Shown: positions 1-64,000 of the stretch, in pieces | Layout: each line of letters starts with the position of its first letter | Numbering within the stretch: position 1 is the first letter of the stretch | From: Pseudomonadota bacterium | GTDB lineage: Bacteria > Myxococcota > JACRCW01 > JAFGSX01 | Length of the DNA stretch: 64,000 nt | Direction: 5' to 3' | NCBI GenBank assembly: GCA_043821645.1 | Contig: JBDRCO010000031.1 | Span: 25,322-89,321 of the forward strand | The notes under the pieces: generated by a model | What the model was told of the DNA's origin: nothing | Database searches by the model: none | What the model saw: only the letters and a program-made list of their open reading frames with translations | Position numbers and translations under genes: made by a program

Positions 1-1
1 C

Positions 2-3000
2 ACGCTGCTATCGGACGGGTCAGCCCTTGTTGATGCGGCCGCCGTCGTGGACGCCACGGCTGCTTCCGACTCCGGTACAACTGCCGATGTGTCCACGAGT
101 GTCGACACCGGCCAGAGGCCGGACGCCGCCGGCACAACCGACCTTGGACAGGCCGACAGGGTGTCGCCGGCGGATTCCGCCGCCGCGCTGGATCGCTGGA
201 CGACAGCCGATGTGTCGTCTCCCGTCGATGCCATCGTGGTGGCGACGGACTCGGCAGGGCCCGCAACCGGTGACGACGACGATGACGATGCCAAGGTGGC
301 GGCGGATGGCTGTGGCTGCACCGCTCAGCGATCCGGGGGAATGCACACTGGCATCTTCGGTCTCGCGCTGTGTGCCTTGCTGGTGCGGAGACGCCGCACG
401 CGGCTCTTTCGCCTCGCCCAGCGTCCTGGAGCGATCCTCGTCGCCATCCTCGCGCTGGCCCCCGCGGCACGCGCCCAGCTCGTGGTGCCCGATCAGTACC
501 CAACGATCCAGGCCGCCATCGACGCGGGCACCGGAGTTGCTCACGTCCTGGTCAAGGCCGGCACCTACGACCCGTTCTCGGTGAGCGGCCCGGGCCACCC
601 CAATCTGACGGGACTCATCATCGAGGGCGAGGACGGCGTGATCGTGCAGGGCTCGACCACCTACACCGTCAATGCGAGCCAGTTTCCCCTGGTTCAGCTG
701 CTCAAGCTGGACCTCTCCGGTGGTACCTTTCGCGTCGTCAACTTCGACCGTGTGGGCGTCGTCACCATGGAGGACTGCACCGTCCACGACAGCCCCGGTG
801 AGGGTATCGGGGTGTACGACTCCGATACCGTGCTGCTGGACCACGTCAGCGTGCGCAACACCCATCGGTACAACAACGGCTACGCCGTCAGCATGAACCC
901 CGTGGGCAATGTCATCGTCGTCGGCGGTGAGTACTCGGACAACACTCCGTCCTCGGCCACGGCGTACTACGGTGGCCTGGGAATCACCCACGGAACTGGC
1001 GGCAGCACCGCGGTGTCGGGGGCTCATTTTCACAACAACAAGGACACCGGGCTCTACGTCACTTCGGCCATCTCGGTGGCCGTCCATGCCGTCGAGGCCA
1101 GCGGGAATGGGGGCTCGGGCGTCCTGCTCGTTGCCAGGGATCGCGTCGACGTCACCAGCACGGTGGCGAGCGGGAACGGAGATAACGGAGTGTCGGCCCA
1201 GGCCGACGTGGTGGTCGTCGACGATGTCGAGGTCATGCAGAACTCGGGTGCCGCGCTCGAGGTCAGCCTGCCCACGGGCACGCCAGGCGTCATCAGCGTG
1301 CACATGCTCGACGCCCACGACAACTTCAGCTCCGGCGCCTGGTTGAGCGCGGCCTACGGCACGATCATCGTCGAGAATTCCGTGGTGCAGGACAACGTCG
1401 GGACCCACCCCGGTGTCTACCTGACCCGTTTTGTCGAGGCCACGGTCAGCGGACTTCAGGTTCTTGGCAACGAGAACACGAGCGGCGGCGGCGGTGGCAT
1501 GTTTGCAGATCCCTCCACCAACGATGCGGTCCTGCATGTCGAGACCAGCTTGTTCGAGGACAACGTGACGGCCTCCGGCGGTGGCGGCTTGATGTGGGAG
1601 GCCAGGCCGCGCAGCAGGCTGGCCGTGTGCGACACGGTGTTCCGTCACAACTCGACCGGGACCAACGGCGGTGGCATCTACTCGAGCACCACCAACCTGG
1701 CCCTGAACAGCTCGAGCATCGCCCTCGCCGACGTGGACTTCGAGAACAACCAGGGCAACAGCGGCGCGGCCTTGTTCGCCACCCGCTCCTGCTTCACCGA
1801 GCTGCAGGGTGGATCGGTGACAGGCCACACCGAGAACCCGTCCACTGCCAACTCCTCGGCGCTGTGGTTTGACACACCCGCGCGGGTGTCAGGGGTGTCC
1901 ATACAGGGCAACAGCACGGACTTCGATCTCGAGGTCGGCGCCAAGCCCTCGTCGGCAGTGGATGACTATGACCTCGACGCCGAGGGCAACTGGTGGGGTA
2001 CGACGGATCTGGCTCAGATCGCGGCGCGCATTCGCGATCGCGCTGACCTGTCGAACCGCATGCGCGCGCGCTACGTGCAGCCATTGGGCGCGGCGCCGGC
2101 AGCGATGGGCGAGGGTTGTCACCTGGTGAGCTGCCTGGGCGCACGCATGCCCCTGCCCGTGGCCCGCGATCGCGGTCTGCAGCCGTCGGTGGGCGATCCC
2201 GTCGACGCGGCCACCGGGGAGCTCCTGCTCGAGGAGACAGATCTCGCCTTTGACGGACCCTTGCCCCTGGTCTGGGTGCGCCACCACCGCACCTGGCTCG
2301 ACCTCGACGCTCTCGCCGATGGGCCCCTGGGCAATGGCTGGCGCCACGGCTTCGAATACCAGCTCAATGTGCAGGGTGCGGTGGCCGTTCTCACCACACC
2401 GCGTGGTCAGATCTACCGTTTCATCGAGCGTGACGATGGCAGCTGGACCCTTCCCGACACCGAGCCCGAACCCCTGGACCTCTATCTGCTGTCGGATGGC
2501 ACCCTGGTGGTCGACCCCCTGTCTGGACAGGTGCAGCGCTTCGATGCCGCGGGAGCCTTGGTCTCGGTCGAGGACCGCAGTGGCAATGCTCTCACCCTGG
2601 AGTACACCAGCGGCACCCTGACCCACGTCGAGGATGGCCGCGGTCATCGCATAGACCTGGAGTACAGCGCAGGTGCCCTGACCCGGCTCGTTGCCAGCGA
2701 CGGTCGCGAGGTTCTGTACGACGTGGTCGGCAACAACCTGGTCGGCGTCACCGATGCCGAGGGTGGGCTCACCCAGTATGCCTACGACAACTCCGGTCTG
2801 CTCACGCGGATCACCTCGACCACCCGTCCCGACGGCGTGGTGGCCTGGACCCAGACCTTCAACAGCCTGGGCCGGGTCACCCAGCAGCGCGATGGCGAGA
2901 ACAGGCTGACCACCATCGGCTACAACACGCCGTCAAGCGGGATCACACGCGTCACCGATGCGGCCTCGGCGCGCACTCACCTGACGCACCTCGAGGAGCG

Positions 3001-6000
3001 CGCGCTGACCCTGCACGCCAATCCAGCGGGTGACGCGGTGACCCTGAGTCACGACCTGAGCTGGCGCCTGGTCCAGATCACGGATCGGATGGGTACCACG
3101 TCCACCGTGAGCTACGACGCGACACGCCGTGTGCCTGCGACCTTGAGCGGACCCAATGGCGGCACCGTGCAGCTCCAGTACCAGGATCAGGTGCAGAACA
3201 TTGCAGGTGTCGACCTGCGCTTCACGTCTCCCTCGCGCATCGACTACCCCGACGGTACCCACGTCTCGCTCACCCGCGACGCCGTGGGCCGGGTCACTGG
3301 CCTGGTGGACCGCACTGGAGAGACCTGGACCCTGAGCTACAACAGCCGTGGTCAGATCGCGCAGGTCGACGATCCCGCAGGCCTCAGCGAGAGTTACACC
3401 TATGACACCGATGGCAACCTGACCGAGGTCAACGGAGCCTCGACCTGGACCCACGACGCGGCCGGACGCGTGACCCGCATCGCCCATGACGACGGAGCAC
3501 AGGTCGACCTCGAGTACGACGCCCTCGACCGGTTGACGCGAGTCGTCGACATAGACGGACGCTGGGTCGAACTGGCCTACGATGCCGCAGGCGAACTCGT
3601 CGGTGTCAGCGATACCACGGGTCACGGTCTGGGCGTGACGCGCGATGCTTCGGGCAAGGTGATGGCCATCGTCGATCGCGCAGGTCGCAGCGTTGACGTG
3701 ACGCGCGACGCCGTCGGCCGCGTGGCGACGCTCACCGATGCAGCCGGCACCACCTGGCAGCTCACCCGCAATAGCAATGGCGCGATCACGGAGGTCACCG
3801 ACAGCAGTGGCCAGGTCTGGGCCCTGGGTCGCGATGCCGAAGGACGCGTGGTAGGGGTCGACACTCCCCTGGGTCGCCACTACGAACTCGGTCTCGACCT
3901 GGCAGGTTCTCTGCGCAGCGTGAGCGGACCGCGCGGGCATCTGCTCAGCATCGCACGCGACGCCCTGGGCCAGGTCGAGAGCCTGCTCGCGCCCGACGGC
4001 ATGCGTGTGGCGTACACGCGCCAGGGAGGCCTGATCACGCAGGCGCTGGCCGACAGCGGTGAGAGCCTGCTGCTGGTTCACGACGCTGCGCAGCGCCTGG
4101 CTCAGCTCATCGATCCCCTGGGCTCGAGCTGGGGCTTCGAGCTGCGCGATCTGGGGGGCAGCCTGCGCTCGACCGACCCCCTCGGGCGGAGCCGCGACCT
4201 GGTGTTCAACGCGCGCGGACAGGTCGAGAGCATCCTGTTCGCCGACGCGGCCCAGGCCAACCTCAGCTATGACCATGCCGGGCGGCTCGCGCACTGGCAG
4301 AGCAGCGACGGCAGCGACCTGACCCTGGCTTACGACGACCTGGGCCGCCTGACCCAGGCTGGTGACCTGAGCCTGAGCTACAACGCCGTGGGCCAGCCCC
4401 TGGCGCGCACGCACCAGGGTGTGACCGTGCTGGCGGGCTACGACGACGGTCGACGTCTCGAGAGTCTCGACGTCGGTGGTGTGCTGACCGTGACCTACAC
4501 CTACGACACCCAGGACAGGCTCGTCAGCGTGAGCGACGACCTTGGCGGTGCCAGCATGGGCTTCGAGTACGACGACGACGGCCGCCTGGTGCGGGAGACG
4601 CGCAGCAACGGTGTGGCCACGGACTGGAGCTGGGACACCGGCTCGCGCCTGCTGTCCCTGGTGCACGGCAGTCTCGCGACCCTGGCTTACGCCTACGACG
4701 AAGTGGGGCGCGTGACCGGGGTCGACGTCAGCGCACCGCTTGACGCGGAGCCGTCTTTGGTTGCCGACGATGCGACCTGGTCCCACGACGCCGCTTCCCA
4801 GATCGTGCACAGCAGCTACGGCAGTGACGCCCGCGGTCGCGCCGTGCTCGTCGACGATGTCGCCATCGCCTACGACGATGCGGACCTGGCCACGCACCTC
4901 GGCAGCGTCGAGTTGGTGCACGATGCCCTGGGCAATCTGGTCGAGCGCGTCGACGGTGCCGTGCGCGTGCACCTGCTCACCCACCCGGCGCTCGGGCTGC
5001 ACAGCGTGGTTGCCGAGCGCGATGCGGACACCGGACTATGGCTACGGTTCTACGTGCTGACGCCGGGGGGCAGGCTGCTGTACTCGGTGTCGCCCCTGGG
5101 GGAGGTGCGCTTCTACCACGGCGATCGTTCGGGTCACGTGCTGCTGCTCAGCGACGGCGCGGGCGCGGTCAGCGACGCCTATGCTTACAGCCCCTACGGT
5201 CGCCTGCTCGGCCACGTGGGCAGCAGCGACCAGCCCTATACCTACGCGGGCCTCTACGGCGGCCGCCGTGCCGGGGTGGGCGAGCTGTATCACATGGGGG
5301 ATCGCCTGTACGACGCAGCCAGCGGTCGTTTCCTCACCCGCGACGCCATCTGGCCAGGACCTGCGCTGCCGTGGGCGGTCAACCCCTATTCCTACGCCTA
5401 TTGCGACCCGATCCGTCTCGTCGACACTCGAGGAACCTCGGCGGTGGATCCGGCCTCGCCAGACCGCGCGACGCCCCTGGAGCTGATGGCCTCGCAGGCG
5501 CCTGGGCTGGAACCTGCCGCCAGCGACATGCTCGACGAGCTGGCCGGTGACAACGCGTCGCTGCGCAAGTGGCTGCGAGCGAACCCCGGACTCGCCGACC
5601 TGCTGGCGCCTGCGGACTGTCCGAGTTGCCGCAAGGCGCTGTCCGTCGCGCCCGGGCTCAAGCCCGTGCCCACGAGCCTGGGCTTCGATCAGGCCTTCAG
5701 CACCGCCCTGGCAGGCACGCTGTCCCTGGGCGAGAGGCAGGCAATGGCCGCGGCTTGGAAGACCTCACGGGACCTTGTCACGCGCGGAAAAGGGCTCGGA
5801 CCCCTGGCCCACGCCAACGAGGTGGCGCGGCTGCGCGGGCACCTGGCCAGGGCGCGCACTTTCAAGGCCCTGGACACGGGTAATTCCGTGGCGGGTGCCA
5901 TCATGGCCACCCTCGGCGAGTACGAGCAGGCTCGACGTGAGGGGCAGGGGACGGCCGTCACCCTGTTGCGCAGCGCTACTGCCGCGGCCGCGAGCTGGGC

Positions 6001-6214
6001 TTTCAAGGGCGATCCCACGGGCATAGGGGCCGAGCTGGCGCAGCAGCCGATGCGCGTGCTGACCATCATCGGCGGTCGCTGTACCAGCCGCTCGCAGCTG
6101 GCCTACGAGCAGAAGATGCGCGAGAACTGGGCGCTCGGAAACCTGCATAACCTTGGCATCATCATCGACGACGCCACGGGGCTGAGCGAGCTGCTGGCAG
6201 GCGCCTTCGAGTAG
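2..6214 (+). CDS. RHS/YD-repeat protein 1, 5'-truncated: Asp/Ala/Thr linker, internal MYXO-CTERM-like motif, second signal peptide, right-handed beta-helix, DUF6531-like domain, RHS core, ~260-aa C-terminal domain
   Basis: Frame 2 is open from base 2, so the true start is upstream. GCGC at 308-319, then a hydrophobic stretch and RRRR at 386-397. AILVAILALAPAARA|Q ends at 475. Also YPTIQAAID and NxxxxGGG beta-helix repeats, DPVDAATGE...GPLGNGWRH at ~2195, many YD repeats, and core end GRFLTRD...NPYSYAYCDPIRLVDTRG (to 5434). Confidence 0.9.
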   Translation, partial: TLLSDGSALVDAAAVVDATAASDSGTTADVSTSVDTGQRPDAAGTTDLGQADRVSPADSAAALDRWTTADVSSPVDAIVVATDSAGPATGDDDDDDAKVAADGCGCTAQRSGGMHTGIFGLALCALLVRRRRTRLFRLAQRPGAILVAILALAPAARAQLVVPDQYPTIQAAIDAGTGVAHVLVKAGTYDPFSVSGPGHPNLTGLIIEGEDGVIVQGSTTYTVNASQFPLVQLLKLDLSGGTFRVVNFDRVGVVTMEDCTVHDSPGEGIGVYDSDTVLLDHVSVRNTHRYNNGYAVSMNPVGNVIVVGGEYSDNTPSSATAYYGGLGITHGTGGSTAVSGAHFHNNKDTGLYVTSAISVAVHAVEASGNGGSGVLLVARDRVDVTSTVASGNGDNGVSAQADVVVVDDVEVMQNSGAALEVSLPTGTPGVISVHMLDAHDNFSSGAWLSAAYGTIIVENSVVQDNVGTHPGVYLTRFVEATVSGLQVLGNENTSGGGGGMFADPSTNDAVLHVETSLFEDNVTASGGGGLMWEARPRSRLAVCDTVFRHNSTGTNGGGIYSSTTNLALNSSSIALADVDFENNQGNSGAALFATRSCFTELQGGSVTGHTENPSTANSSALWFDTPARVSGVSIQGNSTDFDLEVGAKPSSAVDDYDLDAEGNWWGTTDLAQIAARIRDRADLSNRMRARYVQPLGAAPAAMGEGCHLVSCLGARMPLPVARDRGLQPSVGDPVDAATGELLLEETDLAFDGPLPLVWVRHHRTWLDLDALADGPLGNGWRHGFEYQLNVQGAVAVLTTPRGQIYRFIERDDGSWTLPDTEPEPLDLYLLSDGTLVVDPLSGQVQRFDAAGALVSVEDRSGNALTLEYTSGTLTHVEDGRGHRIDLEYSAGALTRLVASDGREVLYDVVGNNLVGVTDAEGGLTQYAYDNSGLLTRITSTTRPDGVVAWTQTFNSLGRVTQQRDGENRLTTIGYNTPSSGITRVTDAASARTHLTHLEERALTLHANPAGDAVTLSHDLSWRLVQITDRMGTTSTVSYDATRRVPATLSGPNGGTVQLQYQDQVQNIAGVDLRFTSPSRIDYPDGTHVSLTRDAVGRVTGLVDRTGETWTLSYNSRGQIAQVDDPAGLSESYTYDTDGNLTEVNGASTWTHDAAGRVTRIAHDDGAQVDLEYDALDRLTRVVDIDGRWVELAYDAAGELVGVSDTTGHGLGVTRDASGKVMAIVDRAGRSVDVTRDAVGRVATLTDAAGTTWQLTRNSNGAITEVTDSSGQVWALGRDAEGRVVGVDTPLGRHYELGLDLAGSLRSVSGPRGHLLSIARDALGQVESLLAPDGMRVAYTRQGGLITQALADSGESLLLVHDAAQRLAQLIDPLGSSWGFELRDLGGSLRSTDPLGRSRDLVFNARGQVESILFADAAQANLSYDHAGRLAHWQSSDGSDLTLAYDDLGRLTQAGDLSLSYNAVGQPLARTHQGVTVLAGYDDGRRLESLDVGGVLTVTYTYDTQDRLVSVSDDLGGASMGFEYDDDGRLVRETRSNGVATDWSWDTGSRLLSLVHGSLATLAYAYDEVGRVTGVDVSAPLDAEPSLVADDATWSHDAASQIVHSSYGSDARGRAVLVDDVAIAYDDADLATHLGSVELVHDALGNLVERVDGAVRVHLLTHPALGLHSVVAERDADTGLWLRFYVLTPGGRLLYSVSPLGEVRFYHGDRSGHVLLLSDGAGAVSDAYAYSPYGRLLGHVGSSDQPYTYAGLYGGRRAGVGELYHMGDRLYDAASGRFLTRDAIWPGPALPWAVNPYSYAYCDPIRLVDTRGTSAVDPASPDRATPLELMASQAPGLEPAASDMLDELAGDNASLRKWLRANPGLADLLAPADCPSCRKALSVAPGLKPVPTSLGFDQAFSTALAGTLSLGERQAMAAAWKTSRDLVTRGKGLGPLAHANEVARLRGHLARARTFKALDTGNSVAGAIMATLGEYEQARREGQGTAVTLLRSATAAAASWAFKGDPTGIGAELAQQPMRVLTIIGGRCTSRSQLAYEQKMRENWALGNLHNLGIIIDDATGLSELLAGAFE

Positions 6215-49984: not shown

Positions 49985-50919
49985 GACTTGATCCCGCGCA
50001 CCTCGCGATCCACGCAGGTGGTGATGCCGGGATCGATGGAGTACCAGCCCGAGAACCCGGTGGCCGAGGTGAAGGTCCCCCAGATGCGCTGGGTGATGGT
50101 CAGCTGGCTGTTGCTGACGTCGAAGTCCGCGCCGCTGATGGTGCCGGTGTAGACCACGCTGTTGCTGCCCGCCTGCTCGGTGATGCTGATGCTTGGCGGC
50201 GTGCTGTTGATGATCAGGGTCGAGTCCTGAAAGGTGCCACACAGAAGTCCCTGATTGCGGGTGCTCTCGTTGACCAGGGTCCAGGTCCAGGTGCCGCTGT
50301 ACGAGGGCGGCAGATCGCTGACCTCGACCTGCAGGCTGTCCTCGTCGCTGCCACCCTGGTCATCGGTGACCGTGAGGGTGACGGTGAAGCTGCCGGCGCT
50401 GGCGAAGGCGTGGTCAAAGCTCGCGCCGCTGCTGGAGCTGCCGTCGCTGGCGTACCAGTCGTGGCTCTGGATGACACCGTCGCTATCGGTGGAGCTGGCG
50501 CCCGTGAAGGACAGCACCTCGTTGACGACTCCCACCGCAGGACCCTCGAGGACCGCCACCGGATCCGCGTTCTGGGTCACGTGCACGAAGGCGCGCGCCG
50601 TGGCCTCGGCGCCGGCGTTGTCGACCACGGTGAGAGACACGGTAAAATCGCCCGCCGCGTTGTAGATGTGGCTGACCACGGCGCCTTGAGCGCTGGCTCC
50701 GTCGCCAAAGTCCCAGCGATAGCTCGCGATGCTGCCGTCGGGGTCCGAGCTGCCGCTGCCATCACAGGCCATGGGCTCGCCGGCCGGAGCCTGGGTCGGG
50801 ATGGCCAGCACGGCGCGCGGTGGCTGGTTCTCCACCTCGACAAAGCCCTCGTCGACGCAGGACAGCATCAGGACGCTGAGCACGGGCACAAGGAGACGCA
50901 GGCGATCACGACCCATCAC
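49981..50919 (-). CDS. Lipoprotein with two PKD domains
   Basis: Lipobox MLSC; SSDPDGSI..Y.WDFGDG; second PKD-like repeat. Confidence 0.88.
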   Translation of the reverse strand: MMGRDRLRLLVPVLSVLMLSCVDEGFVEVENQPPRAVLAIPTQAPAGEPMACDGSGSSDPDGSIASYRWDFGDGASAQGAVVSHIYNAAGDFTVSLTVVDNAGAEATARAFVHVTQNADPVAVLEGPAVGVVNEVLSFTGASSTDSDGVIQSHDWYASDGSSSSGASFDHAFASAGSFTVTLTVTDDQGGSDEDSLQVEVSDLPPSYSGTWTWTLVNESTRNQGLLCGTFQDSTLIINSTPPSISITEQAGSNSVVYTGTISGADFDVSNSQLTITQRIWGTFTSATGFSGWYSIDPGITTCVDREVRGIKS

Positions 50920-51106
50920 ACCACCTCTGGCGCGGGCGCCACGAGGAGCGCGGCGTCACGGATCCGGCAGCATAGGATCCGCAGCCCGTCGCGGCAACGG
51001 ACCTGCGGGGCCTGTGGGCCGAGGCAGTTTTGCCTTTGCAGCGCGCGCCAAAGCTGCTGAAACCGGGCCGGGGAACACTGCCACGCTCGCTCACCTCGAG
51101 GTTCAG

Positions 51107-53632
51107 ATGCGCTGTCCACGCTGTGTCACGACCTTCTTGCTCTGCGGGCTTGCCCTGTTTGCCGGTGCCTGCATCGACGGGGGCGAGTGCCAGGACCAGG
51201 TGGACCTGTGCGACGAGCACCACGCCCAGCGCTGCGCGCCGGACCAGGACGCCCTGCAAACCTGCCTGGTGAACGAGCACGGCTGCATGGTGTGGAGCAT
51301 CACGGCTTTTTGCAGCGATCATGAGCAGTGCAGCGACAGTGCCGGATCGCCCCTGTGCGAGTGTCAGCATGGCTGCGCGGCCCCGGCAGACACCCGCTGC
51401 GAGGGTCCGCGCATCCACATGTGTCTGGTTGACGAGTTCGGCTGCCTGTTCGAAAGCCCGCTCACCAACTGCGCGGCCTCCAACCAGGTGTGTACCGCGG
51501 ATGCAGACGGGGCCCGCTGTGAGGGCAGCTGCACCGACAACTGCAGCGTGCCCGGCGCGCGGCGCTGCGATGCCCGCGTGGTGCAGAGCTGCGTGCAGGA
51601 TGCCGAGGGTTGCCGGACCTGGCAGGCCGAAACCGACTGCAGCACCCTGGCCCAGTTCTGCCACGACGAGGCCGGGTCCGTGAGTTGCCAGGCGGGTTGC
51701 GAGAGCGAGTGCGGCGTGCTCAACAGCACGCGGTGCCAGGGCCTGCAGATCCAGCAGTGCACCCTCACCGGCGGTGGCTGCAAGCTATGGGTCAACGGCC
51801 CGGATTGTGCGCAGAGCCAGCAGGTGTGCGACGACGGCATGCAGCCTGCCAAGTGCGTGGCTGCGTGCAGCGATCAGTGCAGCAGCGAGGGTGCCAAGCG
51901 TTGCCAGGGAACGCTCATCGAGACCTGCGCGCGCACCGGCTACGGCTGCCTGGGCTGGGAGCCGGGCGTGGACTGCGCGAGCACCTCGCAGCAATGCAGC
52001 AGCGCCGGTGGCAGCGTGGCCTGCAGTGACCTCGGGGTCGGATCGCCGCTGTGCTTTGGCTGCACCGCTCATACCCAGTGCGAGGGCTACAGCGGCCAGT
52101 ACGGCGGTGTGTTCTGCCAGCCCCTGCACGAGGGCTCGACCGCCTACTATTGCCTGCAGGACTGCACCAACGACGCGGGTCTGTGCCAGCCTGGCGAGAG
52201 TTGTGATGCCGCGGGCAACTGCATCCCGGTCAATGGTTGTGGCGGCAACGAGTGCTCGCAGGCGAATCCGACGGGCACCTGCCCGGCTGGCCTCGAATGT
52301 CAGGGTGGGACCTGCGTGCGTGTCGGTGGTGGCACCGGGCCCATAGGGAGCGCCTGTGCCCAGGGCAGCGACTGCAGCGACGCCGGGGCGCAGTGCTATC
52401 CCTTTGTCAGCAACGGCCAGGAAACGGGCTTCGTCGACGGCTATTGCATCCAGTTCGGGTGCGACAGCGCGGCCTGTCCCGGTGGTTCAAGCTGTGTGCA
52501 GGTGGGTGACACCAGCTACGCCTGTCTTGACAGCTGTCTCTCCGGTGCCGACTGCCGGCCGGGATACGACTGCCTGCGCGCCGGTGACGGCGTGGCCGTG
52601 TGCTATCCCTACTGCGAGACCAGCAGTGATTGCGGCCAGGGCCTTGCCTGCGTCGACAACACCTGCGTCTCGGCGTGCACCGCCAGCTCCTGTCCATCGG
52701 GCAATCTGTGTGTCGACGGCCGCTGCGTGGTCGACGTGGGGCAGGGACCTGGCACCAACACGCGTTTCCCCCTCGGCACCCTGGGTAGCACCTGCCCGCA
52801 GCTGCCACCCTTGCAGTGCACGGCCGGCGCGGCCGCCTGCAACGCCATCGAGTTCTTCGCGCCTGTCCTCGGACCGGGCTACGACAACTACCCGCTCAAC
52901 GGCGAGACTGCGAGCAACCAGTATCGCAGCTACCTGCGCCACGACGCGCAGATGATGATCAAGTACGCCGCTGCCTACGTGGACTGCCTGGCGCGCGACT
53001 GGAGCGCAGGCAACGGCGGGGCCATCGGCCTGGGCGACATGAGCGAGCAGAACGGCGCCATCCCGGGCACCTCGGTGAACAGTCCCGGTCACCCGACGGG
53101 CACCCACACCAATGGCTTCGATATCGACATGGGCTACTTTCAGGTCAACACCGCGGACAACAAGCTGCGCGCTGTGTGCGACCACGTGCAGAACGGTCAG
53201 GACGCGTACCACTGTGTGAGCGCGCCCTACCTGCTCGACCCCTGGCGCACGGCCCTGTACATCGGCGCGCTGTTCGAGCACCCGTCGCTGCGCATCATCG
53301 GTGTCGACGGCAAGGTCGGGCCACTGGTGCGCTCGGCCATCACCCAGCTGTGCACCGGCGGCTGGCTGTCCAACTACGCCTGCTCGCGCACGGCGCGCAT
53401 GACCTACGAGGAGACCGACGAGGGGCGCGGCTGGTTTCAGTTCCACCACCACCACTTTCACGTCAGCTTCGCCCAGCCCAGCTACAACCTGGCTGGCAAG
53501 ATCGACGACTGCCTGGTGCCGGGCTGCGACGAGGCCGCCCTGCACGAGTGGCTGGGCCGGCAGGGTGTGGGCAAGGTGGCCCTGCGAGCCAGCGCGCTCG
53601 AGCGCGAGTTGCTGCAGTGCCTGCCACAGTGA
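51107..53632 (+). CDS. Cys-rich repeat lipoprotein with C-terminal MepA-like (LAS-type) zinc peptidase domain
   Basis: Lipobox AGAC; five ~50-aa Cys repeats (RCxG..I..C.....GC..W....C); GDMS...HTNGFDID...HHHHFHV. Confidence 0.8.
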   Translation: MRCPRCVTTFLLCGLALFAGACIDGGECQDQVDLCDEHHAQRCAPDQDALQTCLVNEHGCMVWSITAFCSDHEQCSDSAGSPLCECQHGCAAPADTRCEGPRIHMCLVDEFGCLFESPLTNCAASNQVCTADADGARCEGSCTDNCSVPGARRCDARVVQSCVQDAEGCRTWQAETDCSTLAQFCHDEAGSVSCQAGCESECGVLNSTRCQGLQIQQCTLTGGGCKLWVNGPDCAQSQQVCDDGMQPAKCVAACSDQCSSEGAKRCQGTLIETCARTGYGCLGWEPGVDCASTSQQCSSAGGSVACSDLGVGSPLCFGCTAHTQCEGYSGQYGGVFCQPLHEGSTAYYCLQDCTNDAGLCQPGESCDAAGNCIPVNGCGGNECSQANPTGTCPAGLECQGGTCVRVGGGTGPIGSACAQGSDCSDAGAQCYPFVSNGQETGFVDGYCIQFGCDSAACPGGSSCVQVGDTSYACLDSCLSGADCRPGYDCLRAGDGVAVCYPYCETSSDCGQGLACVDNTCVSACTASSCPSGNLCVDGRCVVDVGQGPGTNTRFPLGTLGSTCPQLPPLQCTAGAAACNAIEFFAPVLGPGYDNYPLNGETASNQYRSYLRHDAQMMIKYAAAYVDCLARDWSAGNGGAIGLGDMSEQNGAIPGTSVNSPGHPTGTHTNGFDIDMGYFQVNTADNKLRAVCDHVQNGQDAYHCVSAPYLLDPWRTALYIGALFEHPSLRIIGVDGKVGPLVRSAITQLCTGGWLSNYACSRTARMTYEETDEGRGWFQFHHHHFHVSFAQPSYNLAGKIDDCLVPGCDEAALHEWLGRQGVGKVALRASALERELLQCLPQ

Positions 53633-56559: not shown

Positions 56560-58263
56560 TTGCTCATCGCAGTTCTGCCCCTTCGCGGCATGGAGATCCT
56601 TGGCTGCATGGGCGAAAACGGTGATGACGCCGGCGTGGAGCAGAAGAGAGATGCAGGTGGCGGTACGGACGCGGCCACCGGCAGCGACGCTGCGACCGGC
56701 ACGGACTCGGCAACCAGCGCCGACGCTGCGACTGGCACGGACACAGCGACCGGAGTGGACTCGTCACCTGGCACCGACGCCGCGGCCGGACGGGACTCAG
56801 CGTCTGGCAGCGATTCCGCAACGGCAACCGACGCCGCGGTTGCGGACTCCTCGCTCCCGGATACCACAGTAGCGGACGCGGCCCCCGCGACCGATCCGCC
56901 GCCGGGCACCTGGACCACGCAGGCCATCAGCCCCTACACCGCGATCTTCGCGGAGAGCGTCGGCCAGATGCCGCGGGTGGCGATCAACGCCAGCGGCGAT
57001 GCCCTGGTCACCTGGTCGCAGAACGAGCACCCCTTCTTCGCCGAGCGCATCGGTGGCGTTTGGTCCTTCCTCTCGGACGTGCACCACCACATCCCCGTCG
57101 CTGGCGAGAGCGGCACCGTGTTGCCTGGTCTCGCCGACAACGGCGACGCCGCCATTTCCTGGGCGATCAACTCCCCAGCAGCCATGATCATGCACAGCAC
57201 AAAGGCGAGCGGAACCTGGAGCCACCCGACCCAGAACTCGGATCGCTACGACTACGCCGGCGGGATCGCGAACTGGCCGAGTATGCAATTGGCGGGAGAC
57301 GGCACCGGTCTGCTGATCTGGAAATACTTTTACAACGGAATGGTGGCCGCGACCGCGAGCGCAGGTGCCTGGGCGCAACCCGGCGTTCCGGAGGCGAACT
57401 ATCTGATCAACGTTGGCGGCAGCTTCACCGGGGGCTCCTCGGCCGGTAAATCGGGTGTCGGGGTCGGCAACGGTGGCAACATGGTGGCCGCCTGGATCCA
57501 TACCGACGGCGCAGGCTACGTGGTCCACATGGCCCATCGCATCGGCAGCTGGTCCCTGGGCACCCGGATCAGCCCGCCGCCTGGCGTGACCGTTGGGGGT
57601 ATGGAGTCACCGAAGGTGGCCGTGGGCAACAACGGAGATGCGCTGGTCACCTGGTTCCAGCAGACGGACTACCCCGGCTGCGGGGGCTGCGGCGCGCTCT
57701 ATCTGTCCGAGTACACCGGCAGCGTCTGGACCCACCCCGCCGACAGCGGCGACATCTTCAGCCTGACCGACACCACCGTCAAGGCATTCGCGGACGGCGG
57801 CTTCGTCGGCATTGCCGACAACGGCGGTGCGGTCGTGATCTGGCGGCAGTTCGCCTTGAACTATACAGACGCGCAGATCTACGTCGCCGAGAGGACCGCC
57901 GGGGTCTGGCACAAGCCTGGCCCGGACGAGTACATTCACTTGCCCGGCGGCGCCAATGGGACCGAGAGCTTTCACGCGACCATGGGTCGCAATGGCGATG
58001 TGCTCATCGTCCGCACAGGTAGAAATGCGACCCAGACCAGGACGCAGACCTACGCGATCCAGCGCATCAACGGCGAGTGGTACATCCCGCTGAGCCCACT
58101 GGAGCTTCTCGACCTGGGCAGTGGCGGCAACACCCCCTTCACCGCGATCGCTGCCAACGGTCAGGCCATCATCGCCACCAGCGCCTACGATCCCGTCGCC
58201 GCCCAGACCCGCATCTGGATCGCCGAGTATCAGCCTGACGAGGGCCTGTCTTCAGAGTCCTGA
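56560..58263 (+). CDS. Probable lipoprotein with hexapeptide-repeat linker and beta-propeller-like repeats; start uncertain
   Basis: ILGC lipobox-like; repeated P.VA...GDA.V.W.Q units; lies immediately upstream of RHS protein 2. Confidence 0.8.
   Translation: MLIAVLPLRGMEILGCMGENGDDAGVEQKRDAGGGTDAATGSDAATGTDSATSADAATGTDTATGVDSSPGTDAAAGRDSASGSDSATATDAAVADSSLPDTTVADAAPATDPPPGTWTTQAISPYTAIFAESVGQMPRVAINASGDALVTWSQNEHPFFAERIGGVWSFLSDVHHHIPVAGESGTVLPGLADNGDAAISWAINSPAAMIMHSTKASGTWSHPTQNSDRYDYAGGIANWPSMQLAGDGTGLLIWKYFYNGMVAATASAGAWAQPGVPEANYLINVGGSFTGGSSAGKSGVGVGNGGNMVAAWIHTDGAGYVVHMAHRIGSWSLGTRISPPPGVTVGGMESPKVAVGNNGDALVTWFQQTDYPGCGGCGALYLSEYTGSVWTHPADSGDIFSLTDTTVKAFADGGFVGIADNGGAVVIWRQFALNYTDAQIYVAERTAGVWHKPGPDEYIHLPGGANGTESFHATMGRNGDVLIVRTGRNATQTRTQTYAIQRINGEWYIPLSPLELLDLGSGGNTPFTAIAANGQAIIATSAYDPVAAQTRIWIAEYQPDEGLSSES
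56662..56841 (+). repeat. Ten degenerate 18-bp coding tandem repeats (GTDAAT-like)
   Basis: GTDAAT GSDAAT GTDSAT SADAAT GTDTAT GVDSSP GTDAAA GRDSAS GSDSAT ATDAAV. Confidence 0.85.
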
Positions 58264-58542: not shown

Positions 58543-61500
58543 ATGTCGCCGACCAAACGTCTATCCTGGCTCTCTTCACTGCTGGTGCTGTCGGCTCTGC
58601 TGTTTTGCAGCGCGTCCGCGCTCTGTGCGGTGACCAGCTACGAGTACGACCGCACCGGGCGCCTGACCAGGGCTGTCTACGAGAGCGGGACCCAGATCCG
58701 CTACGTTTATGACCCCAACGGCAACCTGCTGCAGCGGATCATCGAGCCGGCGCCAGTGCCGGATGCGGGTCCAATGGATGGCGCGGTTGCACCCGACGGC
58801 ACCATTGCGGACGGCCATGTAGGTGTCGATTCCGCGACCGGTCAGGACGGCGGAGCAGCGATCGATTCGAGCACAGCGACCGACGGTGCGACTCCGTCTG
58901 ACAGCGCGACAGCGAGCGACTCCTCTGTGGCCAGCGACGCCTTCGCACACGTCGACGCGGGCCAATCCGACACCACAGCACCGACGACCGACTCCGGCAA
59001 GAAGAAGGACCCACCCGAGGAGAATGACGGCTGCGGTTGCTTCAGCTCCGCTCGCCCCGGCAGCGGTCTCGGCCGAGGTATTGGTCTGCTGGCGCTGTTC
59101 GGTCTGCTCAGGTTCCGGCGCAGAAAACTCGCGACCGCTCGTCGTCCCGGCGGCAGGGTCACTGCCCGCCTCTTCACCTTCCTCGTCGTAATTGGCGCCG
59201 TCAGCCTATCTCCACAGCTCCTCAAAGCCAGCACGGTCTGTCTCGAAGGGACCTGCGACTACACCTCGATCCACCAGGCCATTCGCAACGCCAACGACGG
59301 CGAGACCGTCACGGTTAGTCCGGGTGTCTACCTCGAGAGCAATGTGGGTGGGAGTATCTCCTGTCCGTCGCGTATCACGCTGAGGTCCAAGCAAAGCGAC
59401 CCGACCGGTACCGTCATCGACGCCGAAGGCAATGGCACCGTGCTCCACATGAACTGCATTGGTGTGCTCGACGGCTTCACCATCCGCAACGGCCGCTCCG
59501 CGGCTGGCTGGAATGGCGGCGGAATTCTCTACACCTCCGGCGTACAGACCATCAAGAACTGCATCATCGAGAACAACGTCGCGGAACGCGGCGGCGGCGG
59601 TCTCTTCACTCAGACCGGTAGCTCGACGCTGATCCTCATCAACACCATCGTCCGCAACAACCAGGCGCTCGATGGCAGCGGTGGTGGCATCTGGTCCTCC
59701 TCCGGCGCTGTTCACCTTCTGGCCGGCACCAGGATTGAGAACAACAGCGCAACCAAGTCGATCGGCACCTGCACCGGTGGAGGGGTCTCCGCCAATACGG
59801 GGCTGCTGGTCGAGGACAGCTACGTTACGGGCAACACCGTCCGCTCTCCTGGGGCATCGGGTGCAGGCATCGCGACCGGGAGTTCACTGTCGAGTGGCAT
59901 CATCCGCAACAGCACCATCAGCAACAACGTCGCCACCCCAACCAGCGCCACGGGAGGCTCACATGGAGCAGGCCTCCACATCGGCGCAGGAAGCTGGCTC
60001 ATTGAAGCCAGCTTTTTCTTTGGCAACCGAGCCGTCGGCGGCGTCTCCCATCGGGGCGGTGCCATCGAAATTTCAACGAGGCGAGCAGACATCAACCCAG
60101 TGCGCTTGCGCGGGGTCAGCATCACCGCCAACGAGGCCATTCAGGGTGGCGGCGTCTACTGCGGTGCCGCCGAACGACTGGTCGAGGCATCCGACCAGGT
60201 CACCAACAACAGCCTGGACGACTACAACAACTGCGGCGTGTGCAACTCGGGTGCAGTGCCAGCAGAAGAGCAAAGCTGCAGCACCGGCCTGCAGGGTGTC
60301 TGCGCCAGCGGCCGCCAGACCTGCATCAATCCCGGGGTCTGGAGCGAGTGCGTGCCGGATGTCACGCCCGGTGAGCGCGACGAGATCTGCGACAACTTCG
60401 ACGACGACGACTGTGACGGCAAGACCGACGCCGAAGACGAGCACTGCCAGCCTGCCACGCGCACCACCAACGCCGACCACCCCTCCTGCGGCAACAGCAA
60501 CGAGCCGGTCAACACCTTTACCGGCGAGCTTTACGACAGCTACGCGCCCGACATCCACCTCGGCGGCCCACTGCCGGTTTACTTCGCCCGCTACTACTCG
60601 TCAGGCATGGCCGCGGCAGGCATCACCGGCAGGCTGGGCGACAACTGGCGCCACAACTACGAGTGGTCGCTGGATATCAGCGGCACCACCGGTCACGTCA
60701 CCGACAACCAGGGGCACACCATCAGCTTCGAGCAGGTGGCCACCGACTGGGTCCTGCAGGGCGTCGGCCACACACCGTTTCAGCTGCTCGCGGCGGGCGG
60801 CGACCATCTGTTTGGCGACCCGCGCTCGGGCCTGGTCTACACCTTTGACAGCCTGGGTCAGTTGACCTCGGTCGAGGACGGCAAGGGCAACGTGCTGACC
60901 CTGACCCACAGCGCCGGCGATCTGATCGAGGTCGCGGACGGACTGGGTCGTGCGCTCACACTTGTCTACGGCGCCAACACCAGGCTGAGCGAGGTGAGCG
61001 ACGGCACTCGCACGGTCAGCTTTGGCTACACCGGCGACGATCTGACCAGCGTCATCGGCCTGATGACCCAGACCACGAACTACGACTACGCCGCGGGCGG
61101 CCTGCTCACCTCGTGGACCCTGCCCGAGGGCAACGCACCCTACAGCCAGACCTTTGATGGCAGTGGTCGGGTCGATTCCCAGAGCGACGCCTATAACAAC
61201 ACCCACACCTTCGCCTTTGACGAGGTCAACAATCTGACCACCATGACCGATCCCATGGGCGACACCCGCGAGCACGTGCACACCAACCTGGGTGAGCTGG
61301 CGAGCCTGACCGGCAAGGACGCGATCAGCTACGACATGGGCTATGACAGCGGTAGCCGCCGCAATGCGATCACCGACAGGCTCGGCGACACCACCCACTA
61401 TGACTATCACCCGGAGAGCGGCAAGCTGGCCTCGGTCACCAACGCCGATGGCACGGAGACGCGCTACAGCTTTCTCCAACGTTCGGTGCGCGGGATTGTC

Positions 61501-64000
61501 TTCTACGACCTCAGTCGGACCATCTACCCGGACGGCACCAGCGACCGCTACGGCTACGACCCGTTTGGCAACCTGGTCTCGCATGTCGATCGTGCAGGCA
61601 ACGAGCGTCGCAAGACCTACAACCCCAACGGTCAGCTGCTCAGCAGCACCAACGCGGCGGGTGGAACCACCACCCTGACCTACAACGCGGATGGCACTGT
61701 GGCCACGTCGACCGACCCGGCCGGCAACACGACCAGCTTTACCTACGACGCGCTGATGCGGCTGAGTCAGATCGAGTATGCCGACACCACCACGCGACAG
61801 CTCACCTACGACGACGCCGATCGAATCGAGAGCGTGGCCGATGGCCGCGGCAATGTCGCGGCGTACATCTACGACAACAACGGCAACCTGGTGGGCATGA
61901 CAGACAGGTCGAGCCAGACCACGGTATTCGTCTACGACCAGCAGGACAGACTCATCAATGTCATGGATCCCATCGGCAACGCCGTGAGCCGCACCTATGA
62001 CCACCTCGAGCGGCTGGCCACCACAACGGATCAAAGAGACAACACCACGATCTACAGCTACGACAAGCGCGATCGACTCGTCTCTGTCACCGACGCCAGC
62101 GGCCAGGTCTGGAGCAGGACCTACGATCTGGAGAGCATCCTCACCTCGACCAGCGATCCGCTCGCCAACACCACGACCTTTGTCTCCGACAACATGGGGC
62201 GCATCACCCGGTCGACCAGTCCGCTGGGTCACAGCAACGAGGTTGCTTACGACGGCATGGGGCGCGTGGCCAGCGCGACCAATGCCCTGGGCGAGGTGAC
62301 CGCGTTCAGCTACGACGATCTGGGGCTCCTGACGAGCATCGATATCGAGGGCGTCTCGGCCTCCTACTCCCACAACGCCCTGGGGAAGCTGACAGCTGTC
62401 GTGGACCCCATCGGCAGCAGCTGGACTCGCAGCCACGACAATATGGGACGACTCAGCTCGCGGACCGACCCGCTGGGCAACAGCAGCGGCTACGCCTACG
62501 ACGTCATGGGCCGCATGGCACAGGTCACGCTGCCAGGTGGCCTGGGCACCATTGACTTCGCCTACGATGACAACGGCAACAACATCGAGCGCGCTTACAC
62601 CGGCGGCCTGACCCTCAGCGCCAGCTACGACGAGAAAGACCGGCTCACCTCGGCCGACGGGATGACGCTGTCGTACGACGATAACGACGCCATCGTCGAG
62701 AGCAACGGCCTCATCATGACGCGCGATGCCAGCAGCCGCATCGAGACGGTCACCTTTGGTGTCGGCAAGGTGCTCACCTATCGCTACAACTCGCGCGGGC
62801 AGCTCAGCGAGGTCGAGGACTGGCTCGGGGGCATCTCGACCTTTGCCTACGACGCGGCCGGCCGGCTCACCACCATGACCCGGCCCAATGGCATCACCGC
62901 GACCTACACCTGGGACAGCGACAGCAGACTGGTCGGCATAGACGAGGGCAGCGTGTCGTCGATCGCCCTGGTCCGCGACGCCGCAGGCCAGATCACCAGC
63001 GCCGACAGGAACATGCCACAGGTTGGAGACGCCGAGTTAGCCACCGCAGTCACCCAGAGCTTTGACGTGGCGTCCCAGGTGGCCACCTCGACCTACGACG
63101 CCCTGGGACGGCTGCTCGACGACGGTGTGCGGACCTACGTGTGGGATCTGGCGTCACGGCTGCTCTCCTACACCGAGGGCGGCAACACGGTCAGCTTCAC
63201 CTACGACGGAGCGGGCATGCGCACCTCTCGCACCGAGGGCGGTGTGACCCGGGACTACGCCTGGAACCACGCGCTGGGCCTGTCGTCGGTGGCCATCGAG
63301 CGGGAGAGCGCCGCGGACCTGCGCTACTACGTGCACACGCCCAGCGGATCCCTGCTCTACAGTGTCGAGGCCGATGGTAGCAGGCGCTTTTTCCACTTCG
63401 ATGAGATGGGTAACACGAGCTATTTGACCGACGACGTCGGTGCCACGATCGCGAGCTACGACTACAGCCCCTATGGAGAGGTGATCGGGAGAAGCGGTGT
63501 GCTCGACAACGACTTCACCTGGCAGGGCCAGCACGGTGTGGCACAGGAGGGCAGCGGCGGGCTCTACTACCTTCGGGCGCGCTACTACCACGCGCCGAGC
63601 GCGCGCTTCATCTCGCGGGACGCTCTCTCCACGACGGGACCGAGAACGGTAAATCGCTATCAGTATGCGGTGGGCAATCCCCTTGGAGGATCAGATCCCA
63701 CAGGACTTTTTGGAGAGACCTTTTTTCGCCCTATGTTTGTCCCCCTTGACTTTGTCTATGATCTTACCCATGGCCGCTACCTTCGCGACGGAGAAGCGTA
63801 TCAGCACAGGAGAAAAAACGCGAATAAGTACTTTCTGATCAACAACAAGTACGCTGATTACAAACCTGGTCATTGGAGAGACAGACCGAGCTCGCCGACA
63901 CCGAAGCGCAGGGGAGAAGAGGTGTTAGGGACAGACCACCCTATCTACTCGGCACTGAAGCACGAGGGGGCGTTCCTCAGGACTGGTTACGACGACGGGA
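58543..64000 (+). CDS. RHS/YD-repeat protein 2, 3'-truncated and absent from the ORF track: signal peptide, two YD repeats, linker, internal MYXO-CTERM-like motif, second signal peptide, beta-helix, Cys/Asp motif, DUF6531-like domain, RHS core, C-terminal domain
   Basis: Both ends translated by hand in frame 1; the ORF track lists no closed frame-1 ORF in between, so it appears open throughout. MSPTKRLSWLSSLLVLSALLFCSASALCA; YEYDRTGRL...YVYDPNGNL; GCGC at 59029-59040; RRRK at 59116-59127; LFTFLVVIGAVSLSPQLLKA; EICDNFDDDDCDG; EPVNTFTGE; NPLGGSDPTGL ending at 63708. Confidence 0.9.
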   Translation, partial: MSPTKRLSWLSSLLVLSALLFCSASALCAVTSYEYDRTGRLTRAVYESGTQIRYVYDPNGNLLQRIIEPAPVPDAGPMDGAVAPDGTIADGHVGVDSATGQDGGAAIDSSTATDGATPSDSATASDSSVASDAFAHVDAGQSDTTAPTTDSGKKKDPPEENDGCGCFSSARPGSGLGRGIGLLALFGLLRFRRRKLATARRPGGRVTARLFTFLVVIGAVSLSPQLLKASTVCLEGTCDYTSIHQAIRNANDGETVTVSPGVYLESNVGGSISCPSRITLRSKQSDPTGTVIDAEGNGTVLHMNCIGVLDGFTIRNGRSAAGWNGGGILYTSGVQTIKNCIIENNVAERGGGGLFTQTGSSTLILINTIVRNNQALDGSGGGIWSSSGAVHLLAGTRIENNSATKSIGTCTGGGVSANTGLLVEDSYVTGNTVRSPGASGAGIATGSSLSSGIIRNSTISNNVATPTSATGGSHGAGLHIGAGSWLIEASFFFGNRAVGGVSHRGGAIEISTRRADINPVRLRGVSITANEAIQGGGVYCGAAERLVEASDQVTNNSLDDYNNCGVCNSGAVPAEEQSCSTGLQGVCASGRQTCINPGVWSECVPDVTPGERDEICDNFDDDDCDGKTDAEDEHCQPATRTTNADHPSCGNSNEPVNTFTGELYDSYAPDIHLGGPLPVYFARYYSSGMAAAGITGRLGDNWRHNYEWSLDISGTTGHVTDNQGHTISFEQVATDWVLQGVGHTPFQLLAAGGDHLFGDPRSGLVYTFDSLGQLTSVEDGKGNVLTLTHSAGDLIEVADGLGRALTLVYGANTRLSEVSDGTRTVSFGYTGDDLTSVIGLMTQTTNYDYAAGGLLTSWTLPEGNAPYSQTFDGSGRVDSQSDAYNNTHTFAFDEVNNLTTMTDPMGDTREHVHTNLGELASLTGKDAISYDMGYDSGSRRNAITDRLGDTTHYDYHPESGKLASVTNADGTETRYSFLQRSVRGIVFYDLSRTIYPDGTSDRYGYDPFGNLVSHVDRAGNERRKTYNPNGQLLSSTNAAGGTTTLTYNADGTVATSTDPAGNTTSFTYDALMRLSQIEYADTTTRQLTYDDADRIESVADGRGNVAAYIYDNNGNLVGMTDRSSQTTVFVYDQQDRLINVMDPIGNAVSRTYDHLERLATTTDQRDNTTIYSYDKRDRLVSVTDASGQVWSRTYDLESILTSTSDPLANTTTFVSDNMGRITRSTSPLGHSNEVAYDGMGRVASATNALGEVTAFSYDDLGLLTSIDIEGVSASYSHNALGKLTAVVDPIGSSWTRSHDNMGRLSSRTDPLGNSSGYAYDVMGRMAQVTLPGGLGTIDFAYDDNGNNIERAYTGGLTLSASYDEKDRLTSADGMTLSYDDNDAIVESNGLIMTRDASSRIETVTFGVGKVLTYRYNSRGQLSEVEDWLGGISTFAYDAAGRLTTMTRPNGITATYTWDSDSRLVGIDEGSVSSIALVRDAAGQITSADRNMPQVGDAELATAVTQSFDVASQVATSTYDALGRLLDDGVRTYVWDLASRLLSYTEGGNTVSFTYDGAGMRTSRTEGGVTRDYAWNHALGLSSVAIERESAADLRYYVHTPSGSLLYSVEADGSRRFFHFDEMGNTSYLTDDVGATIASYDYSPYGEVIGRSGVLDNDFTWQGQHGVAQEGSGGLYYLRARYYHAPSARFISRDALSTTGPRTVNRYQYAVGNPLGGSDPTGLFGETFFRPMFVPLDFVYDLTHGRYLRDGEAYQHRRKNANKYFLINNKYADYKPGHWRDRPSSPTPKRRGEEVLGTDHPIYSALKHEGAFLRTGYDDG

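Follow-up and report, generated by a model that had tools for sequence, protein, structure and literature searches.

An RHS-family gene with an internal MYXO-CTERM-type tag and a second signal peptide: a candidate two-passenger secretory precursor

How can a single reading frame hold two signal peptides with a sorting tag between them, and what would become of the protein that it encodes? This question is raised by a gene at one end of contig JBDRCO010000031.1 of a myxococcotal genome (assembly GCA_043821645.1), in a stretch of 64,000 nucleotides that we refer to as the window (G000:C31:25322-89321, where G000 is the source genome and C31 the contig). In one frame, the gene encodes a signal peptide (SP1), two YD repeats, an acidic stalk, a MYXO-CTERM-type tag, a basic loop, a second signal peptide (SP2), a β-helix, a DUF6531 domain and an RHS core. 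This order of parts had been claimed in an original prediction made from the sequence alone, and it can be read both in the translation and in family scans. We lean slightly toward viewing the locus as a real and conserved gene for a two-passenger Sec precursor, which would have been born from the fusion of a two-gene unit comprising an anchored YD-hairpin gene and a gene for an RHS toxin with its own signal peptide.

Layout of the gene and descent of its second signal peptide

The reading frame runs without a stop codon from position 58438 as far as 63999, where the window ends, and translation likely starts at an ATG at 58543, directly after a run of G. Because the window ends where the contig ends, the gene is truncated at its 3′ end, at 1819 residues. 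This truncation goes beyond the original prediction, as does a second copy of the gene at window positions 1-6214, described below. The parts of the truncated gene, by window position, are as follows.

58543..58629, plus strand: first signal peptide (SP1), residues 1-29, with a basic n-region (K5, R6) and a hydrophobic run over residues 7-33
58630..58740, plus strand: two YD repeats (the hairpin), residues 30-66; Pfam RHS_repeat 37.6 bits in 2 stretches, TIGR01643 22.2 bits (cut-off 15.8)
58741..59025, plus strand: acidic low-complexity stalk, residues 67-161; D/A/S/T/G/P make up 77%, net charge -15
59026..59127, plus strand: internal MYXO-CTERM-type tag, residues 162-195, DGCGC...GIGLLALFGLLRFRRRK, with a spacer, the helix GIGLLALFGLL and RFRRRK
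59110..59169, plus strand: basic loop RFRRRKLATARRPGGRVTAR, with nine K/R and no D/E, sharing its Arg cluster with the tag
59170..59229, plus strand: hydrophobic (h-) and c-region of the second signal peptide (SP2), LFTFLVVIGAVSLSPQLLKA, residues 210-229, ending LKA; hydrophobic run over residues 206-227
59230..60342 (end approximate), plus strand: right-handed β-helix region, beginning STVCLEGTCDY; NosD-like matches over residues 243-389 are under their cut-offs, and homologs have PF13229
60343..60501, plus strand: Cys- and Asp-rich linker, seen in the translation
60502..60729, plus strand: DUF6531 (RHS N-terminal plug region), residues 654-729; PF20148 54.1 bits (cut-off 24.1)
60820..63462 (start approximate), plus strand: RHS/YD repeat shell; PF05593 290.8 bits in 17 stretches, TIGR01643 229.3 bits
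63463..63708, plus strand: RHS repeat-associated core domain, residues 1641-1722, ending ...GGSDPTGL; TIGR03696 57.1 bits (cut-off 32.5)
63709..63999, plus strand: beginning of the C-terminal (toxin) region, ended by the contig, with a drop in G+C content

The identity of the second hydrophobic segment is central to the question, and homologs of the RHS part that lack the fusion bear on it directly. The closest of these are P0028 (48% identity over the core) and P0046 (40%), each of which has an ordinary signal peptide at its N-terminus. When aligned, SP2 occupies the position of these N-terminal signal peptides, as well as that of SP2 in two fused relatives from other genomes (G283 and G034), and the predicted mature ends of P0028 and P0046 align with the STVCLEG that follows SP2. 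After the signal peptide, P0028 reads VTVCPSGCDFTSISAAL and P0046 reads TVTVRPDCSGSGCYATI, which are aligned to STVCLEGTCDYTSIHQAI of the protein studied here. At the cleavage site itself, with a slash marking the predicted cut, the unfused homologs read VTVCPSGCDFTS..., the present protein LKA/STVCLEGTCDYTS and the relative in G283 VEA/ATVCGDGSCDFT. SP2 further combines an n-region of nine K/R, the h-region LFTFLVVIGAV and an Ala at position -1. Across six fused proteins, which are introduced in the next section, position -1 is A, A, A, A, A and S, all of them small, and position -3 is L, A, V, A, A and A. Judged by these alignments, SP2 appears to be a signal peptide by descent, as had been proposed for this segment. 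In addition, codons 150-267 contain no in-frame ATG, GTG or TTG, and so the RHS part can be made only within the long chain; an independent internal start for it was ruled out for the same reason.

These features suggest a path by which one chain could deliver two products. The ancestral two-gene unit would have lost its stop codon and spacer, while both targeting signals stayed functional. SP1 would then lead the hairpin and stalk through Sec, and the MYXO-CTERM helix would halt the transfer, leaving the Arg cluster and basic loop in the cytoplasm. SP2 would resume translocation, now of the β-helix and RHS part, and signal peptidase I would cleave behind LKA229, releasing an RHS protein that begins STVCLEG. 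At the tag, lipidation of the Cys motif followed by a myxosortase cut would yield a lipid-anchored hairpin on its stalk, which the type II system may carry to the surface. In the original prediction, the two products would arise in a 1:1 ratio. The topology, both cleavages and the export route are inferred from the positive-inside rule, the homology of SP2 and published work on MrtX and its sorting tag (PMC11980579, cited here and below for the part of the paper that was covered). With three hydrophobic segments and a strongly basic loop free of acidic residues, the sequence fits the out-in-out topology of the original prediction, and by the positive-inside rule the loop would be cytoplasmic.

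A signal peptide is present at the N-terminus as had been stated, and its cleavage is likely, on sequence grounds, after either ASA26 or LCA29, such that the cut previously placed after LCA29 may instead fall after ASA26. A lipoprotein signal was rejected for SP1, as no lipobox lies ahead of either Cys. The stalk gives weak matches to NF045523, a model of the tails of MYXO-CTERM-anchored proteins, at 22.5-23.3 bits, far under the cut-off. The protein belongs to the RHS family and is not an equivalog of the enterobacterial Rhs core, with the RHS element core model NF041261 scoring 192.9 bits and not reaching its cut-off of 2000 bits. The family scan of the C-terminal region (63709..63999) was without a match, only 97 residues remaining between the core domain and the contig end. 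The G+C fraction of window positions 63500-63999, the stretch after DPTGL, is 0.572 compared to about 0.65 before it. Contigs often end at the variable toxin ends of RHS genes.

Fused and split forms in other genomes

A junction seen once could be an accident, and the first evidence that it is not comes from the window itself, which carries a paralog at its other end.

1..6214 (start 296 bases ahead of the window), plus strand: paralog P0098, 2169 residues, complete, with the same layout
305-400, plus strand: MYXO-CTERM-type tag of the paralog; TIGR03901 16.5 and 13.8 bits
about 401-478, plus strand: SP2 of the paralog, AILVAILALAPAARA, with QLVV as the next residues

The paralog reads signal peptide, two YD repeats, acidic stalk, DGCGC...LLVRRRR, TRLFRLAQRPG, AILVAILALAPAARA/QLVV, β-helix, DUF6531, RHS and C-terminal region, and its family scan found Beta_helix, DUF6531 and RHS_repeat. 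The two copies are far diverged, with 33% identity over 1103 residues of the RHS cores and 37-40% identity between the N-terminal modules.

We also searched a sample of 401 genomes of the phylum twice, once with a model of the signal peptide and hairpin and once with the stretch from tag to β-helix, scoring 14 and 6 candidates per genome, respectively; 150 of the 464 matches to the hairpin model were listed. The same domain order, which the original prediction had suggested looking for in this phylum, was found in three other genomes (G283, G034 and G002). Together with the source genome, this gives at least four of the 401 genomes, each from a different family within the phylum. The G283 copy is an intact frame of 2090 residues that reads ...GCGC...LLLCRRRR, a loop and ...APVEA/ATVCGDGSCDF, and the G034 copy on contig C16 is an intact frame of 1961 residues that reads ...GDGCGC...GGRRRR and GAAWWPVGLALWGLAAPGAQA/AEIIVC. 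The G002 copy reads ...RCGCSQ...LLRRRRR and AWWCAASLAAAALTPAGARA/AP, then one frameshift about 100 residues further on, and then HAF-like repeats, DUF6531 and the RHS core. A sixth fused protein, P0239, came from the protein database and reads VPEAG..., a helix, WWWRRR, a loop, an SP2 ending ...VPARS/EP, Kazal-like modules and RHS. The passenger behind SP2 is an RHS protein in all six, although its first domain varies between a β-helix, HAF-like repeats and Kazal-like modules. Recurrence of the layout in a paralog of 33% identity and in three other genomes is more than chance would give.

The reach of these searches can be stated more closely. An initial script threshold of 1.9 would miss the G034:C16 copy (h = 1.86), which came from the second search of the phylum. 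A further 20 borderline matches in the phylum, starting at model positions 11-27, were all internal RHS repeats, none with an N-terminus of signal peptide and YD repeats; a laxer threshold applied to these 20 flagged one internal repeat, L168, a false positive. Among the matches listed for the hairpin model in 172 genomes of a large-genome family (f11), none was full-length. In the whole protein library, a profile search with the full N-terminal module returned 9882 proteins at E<=0.001. Almost all of the best 150 were generic RHS proteins repeatedly matched by the YD part, and P0239 was the only new and relevant protein among these 150 of the 9882. A word-index search with residues 1-420 returned 96 proteins, none of which, besides the window's own, covers more than 58% of the region.

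Could the junction instead be an artefact, with two neighboring genes joined through faulty assembly or base calling in a draft genome of metagenome type? Three circumstances weigh in this direction and against a real fusion. The genome is a draft in 140 contigs and the gene meets a contig end; public sequencing runs leave the bins at 58936-59404 uncovered, three DNA runs yielding only scraps of 150-260 nucleotides (shares 0.08-0.16) and no RNA run being found, so that the junction lacks read coverage; and the G002 copy contains the frameshift noted above. An error of this kind would, however, have to recur in five intact and far-diverged open reading frames that follow the same junction logic (two in the source genome, G283, G034:C16 and P0239). 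In addition, the frame here runs without a stop, offers no start codon for a second gene and has an even base composition over the module junction. We therefore regard an artefact as very improbable.

Split versions, with a small YD gene beside an RHS gene, also exist, and the original prediction had suggested looking for them. On contig C8 of G034 (loci L007 1465-1935 and L017 5379-10679), the TGA of an RHS gene with a signal peptide (P0246, 1766 residues) overlaps the ATG of a 156-codon gene in the sequence ATGA. In the product of this small gene, a signal peptide and two YD repeats are followed by a (GD)n stalk and DDCGC...RRRRR. The two-YD hairpin is conserved across all fused and split relatives. 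An immunity gene would usually be expected at the position held by this small hairpin gene. G034 holds both this split pair (C8) and a fused copy (C16).

Just downstream of the paralog's stop at 6214, a 332-codon open reading frame at 6971-7969 on the plus strand encodes a candidate immunity protein. It begins like a signal peptide and contains a stretch rich in Pro, and its C-terminal half is hydrophobic, with several helices. A functional link was not found for the other neighbors in the window, which encode HypF, an AIR-synthase-like protein, PFK, a Ser/Thr kinase, HlyIII and a protein with peptidoglycan-binding and C39-like parts. Three open reading frames, at 8548-13446, 50729-53632 and 56560-58263 (all on the plus strand; 1632, 967 and 567 residues), have no Pfam match at E<=0.001; the first of these shows a zinc-protease motif of the HEMGH type by eye.

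The internal tag and the fate of the chain

If the junction is real, the next question is whether the segment between the two passengers is a sorting tag that the cell could process. The MYXO-CTERM model TIGR03901 has a curated cut-off of 20 bits, and according to the model's authors multiple matches per genome are confined to Myxococcota (10.1101/2023.06.07.544157, in the part covered). The source genome has 77 matches at E<=1, of which 44 lie above the cut-off, in line with a place in this phylum, and these matches share the pattern of a Cys motif, a helix and an Arg cluster. The tag of the present gene displays all three elements (DGCGC, GIGLLALFGLL and RFRRRK) and reaches 22.4 bits in the whole-genome scan (G000:C31:84347-84445). 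On the excised module the score is 16.3 or 18.5 bits, so that the match is borderline, while the motif pattern agrees with the original description of the segment as MYXO-CTERM-like.

Its position is what sets the tag apart. In 66 of the 77 matches, a stop codon follows no more than 12 residues past the match, whereas here at least 1625 residues come after the tag. Only three of the 77 are followed by at least 561 residues, namely the present gene, the gene with a match at window positions 305-397 and one gene on contig C72. The third of these (G000:C72:31009-37824, minus strand; locus L002 3009-9824) scores 23.1 bits in the genome scan and 19.3 on the excised piece. It encodes a signal peptide and MopE-type metal-binding repeats (PF11617, 363.7 bits) leading into ...GCTCSAG...VAWRRR. 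After the tag comes KRGVLVLCAVVGLAASLSLVPAC, which resembles a lipoprotein signal, and then 561 residues without a Pfam match. This case indicates that internal tags with a new signal behind them are not restricted to RHS proteins in the source genome. A further match (26.3 bits) lies about 5 kb upstream of the window in a frame of 1018 codons (G000:C31:20254-20331, minus strand), where 36 residues remain before the stop, longer than usual.

The machinery that would act on such tags is encoded in the same genome. A single gene with a myxosortase core is present, bearing the motifs EExxxR and HxxxN. Its pieces lie at two contig ends (C26:59301-59546 and C102:12-212) that overlap by exactly 141 nucleotides, and because the gene is split between two contigs, each piece stays under the 100-bit cut-off of NF040914 (72.1 and 66.7 bits). 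The genome also encodes the secretin GspD, which scores 504 bits (cut-off 351).

Several of these observations weigh against a tag that is cut and a signal peptide that is cleaved. The scores of the tag (16.3-22.4 bits) are borderline, those of the paralog (13.8-16.5 bits) lie below the cut-off, the tag helix is short at about 11-13 residues, the myxosortase pieces each score under their cut-off, and position -3 of SP2 is a Leu. In a rival account, the protein would remain uncut. The tag helix and the second hydrophobic segment would form a helical hairpin, and both the YD module and the RHS part would stay at the inner membrane, on its periplasmic face, in a single chain. The sub-threshold scores of the present tag when excised and of the paralog's tag, together with the Leu at -3, speak for this account, as does the first anchor of P0239, a helix and Arg cluster that is devoid of Cys and has no sorting-domain match. 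Yet SP2 matches the cleavable-looking N-terminal signal peptides of the unfused P0028 and P0046, and the residue at -1 is small in six of six SP2 segments and that at -3 in five of six. The tags of three fused relatives exceed the cut-off as well (26.8 and 23.8 bits in G034, 25.2 in G002, 22.3 and 21.7 in G283), and the genome provides 44 tagged proteins along with its myxosortase-core gene. Moreover, a toxin fixed in the inner membrane of its producer would presumably have no obvious path to a target. An uncut chain therefore seems improbable to us, and we continue to favor the two-passenger precursor.

Hairpin docking and comparison with known systems

Why should an anchored YD hairpin and an RHS protein be encoded together? 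The original prediction suggested that the hairpin might dock onto the RHS cocoon, and we modeled residues 29-76 (the hairpin) together with residues 640-1585 (a truncated shell) using custom alignments. The co-fold scored 0.58 (runs 0.34, 0.65 and 0.58) compared to 0.00 for the best control, the runs shared at least 72% of their contacts, and the predicted local distance difference test (pLDDT) score of the partner was at least 78. In calibration, the mark used was passed by 116 of 157 solved complexes and by two of 215 mismatches. The score lies above that of the controls, and several points count against docking. At scores of 0.60 or below, 18 of the 157 solved complexes passed along with both mismatches; the support was rated weak, and the output came without an interface. 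In addition, ending the shell at residue 1585 leaves an artificial free sheet edge that may suit any YD hairpin. For this reason we treat binding of the hairpin to the RHS protein, which would hold the latter at the cell surface, as a tentative model that is somewhat less probable than its absence.

The wider family of hairpin proteins provides a second line of evidence, and it points both ways. A search for small relatives returned 31 proteins. In several of the 14 that were read, a signal peptide and two YD repeats are joined to some other tail or anchor. P0256 carries a PEP-CTERM anchor (PF07589, 23.7 bits against 20.7), P0254 a CFI-box-CTERM anchor (NF041770, 84.2 bits against 40) and P0270, from a metagenome-assembled genome of Candidatus Schekmanbacteria, a helix and Arg cluster. 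These three anchors indicate that the anchored hairpin is not limited to one phylum. Other small two-YD proteins bear cadherin-like, TSP3-like or Ig-like tails. In a scan of species genomes with a four-row alignment, 80 loci were kept. In 20 of them a signal peptide was flagged immediately ahead of the initial YD motif, and 19 of these were examined (L125 was omitted). The organisms named for the kept loci include Alphaproteobacteria, Acidobacteriota, a metagenome-assembled "delta proteobacterium", Gammaproteobacteria and others. An RHS-like open reading frame, defined as at least 300 residues with at least four YD motifs, directly adjoins nine of the 19, in several phyla, lying upstream, downstream or divergently at gaps of 4-892 nucleotides; the adjacent RHS genes of L051, L076, L098 and L119 each carry their own signal peptide. 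Three of the 19 continue into further YD repeats in the same open reading frame, and seven have no RHS-like open reading frame in the locus (three of these on contigs shorter than 6 kb).

The seven solitary genes and the adhesin-like tails argue against docking. They would be expected if both cleavages occur and the hairpin is an independent small surface module, adhesin-like or lectin-like, in which case the fusion would reflect mere gene neighborhood. The modules attached to cadherin-like, TSP3-like and Ig-like tails or to PEP-CTERM and CFI-box-CTERM anchors fit such a role, as does the weak co-fold on a truncated shell. Mere neighborhood is harder to reconcile with the nine hairpin genes that adjoin an RHS-like open reading frame and the three that share a frame with more YD repeats, with the RHS passenger of all six fused proteins despite their differing first domains, or with a co-fold of 0.58 against controls of 0.00. 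We judge an independent module quite unlikely, and the genomic association, through both fused and adjacent genes, lends docking indirect support. Rather doubtful, in our estimation, is a broader model of small secreted proteins that combine a signal peptide, two YD repeats and no more, and whichever anchor their lineage uses (MYXO-CTERM, PEP-CTERM, CFI-box-CTERM or simply a helix and Arg cluster). In this model, they would serve Sec-exported RHS toxins of several phyla as an accessory that has not been described before. The hairpin would extend the edge of the RHS sheet and keep the loaded cocoon attached to the surface of the producing cell, for delivery upon contact, and in one phylum the pair would have been welded into a secretory polyprotein resolved by signal peptidase and myxosortase.

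A two-passenger precursor of this kind would have several consequences. If the layout functions as proposed, it would be a natural bacterial case of two Sec passengers in one chain, with first a stop-transfer sorting tag and then another signal peptide between them, and it could explain the retention of secreted RHS toxins on the cell surface. A YD hairpin on a lipid anchor, supplied by the RHS reading frame itself or by an adjacent gene, is a concrete and testable candidate anchor for surface RHS proteins, for which no anchor is named in the part of PMC10433427 covered here. The gene is also a ready substrate for asking whether myxosortase acts on internal tags. Finally, our results flag a small protein family, defined by two YD repeats behind a signal peptide, whose members carry no label other than "RHS repeat" in current domain libraries.

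Two parallels come from other systems. In Tc toxins, the two polypeptides TcB and TcC form one YD shell, which is a precedent for edge-to-edge YD sheets. Both of those partners supply large parts of the shell, whereas the hairpin has two repeats only and the RHS core looks complete alone. In viral polyproteins, signal and stop-transfer segments within the chain are sites of cleavage by the signal peptidase of the host. The alternating stop-transfer and signal segments of the present gene would likewise give separate lumenal products, although the viral case belongs to a eukaryotic setting. Our literature search for bacterial polyproteins with internal signal peptides turned up only viral work.

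A close comparison is to the sorting system of Myxococcus xanthus, in which the MYXO-CTERM of TraA is presumed to be lipidated before MrtX cuts it, and tagged proteins reach the surface via the type II system (PMC11980579). Within the part of that paper covered here, cleavage and lipidation by the sorting pathway are shown only for TraA and MXAN_4924, and C-terminal sorting tags are stated to function in the middle of a protein. The present gene resembles this system in its tripartite tag (a GCGC-like Cys motif, a helix and an Arg cluster), the signal peptide ahead and the disordered region before the tag (PMC11980579; 10.1101/2023.06.07.544157). Tagged proteins are likewise numerous in its genome, which also encodes a type II secretin and a protease of the CPBP type bearing EExxxR and HxxxN. 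Unlike in TraA, more than 1600 residues separate the tag from the C-terminus, with another signal peptide and an entire RHS protein behind it, and its score is borderline. The original claim that no such arrangement had been described was too strong, since an internal MYXO-CTERM has been discussed for MXAN_5598 of M. xanthus (PMC11980579). In that protein, the tag lies between an adhesin region and an outer-membrane β-barrel/OmpA part, an arrangement interpreted as a two-gene fusion, for which the authors suggest processing of the N-terminal part and its anchoring at the surface. With MXAN_5598 already in print, the principle of an internal MYXO-CTERM is not new. Our gene shares with it an internal tag in an apparent two-gene fusion and differs in its passengers, a two-repeat YD hairpin and an RHS toxin, and in its second signal peptide, a feature unmentioned for MXAN_5598 in the part of the paper covered.

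The RHS part, in turn, resembles toxins of the Rhs/WapA type that are independent of the type VI system, such as Rhs4 and Rhs5 of M. xanthus, in its large size and in its series of Sec signal, DUF6531, YD shell, RHS-associated core and variable C-terminal region (PMC10433427). RHS proteins with signal peptides act in myxobacterial kin discrimination without a type VI system, and in the covered part of this review Rhs and MYXO-CTERM are handled as separate topics. Proteins of the Rhs4/Rhs5 type are thought to be located at the surface and have one N-terminal signal peptide, with no anchor named in that part of the review, whereas the present gene encodes an anchored module in the same frame (PMC10433427). 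Our literature searches, which did not extend to Table S1 of PMC11980579 and covered parts of the papers, found no paper joining RHS to an internal MYXO-CTERM or to an anchored YD hairpin. Set against these systems, the gene combines a familiar sorting tag, at an internal position that is rare for it, with an established toxin family and a small hairpin module.

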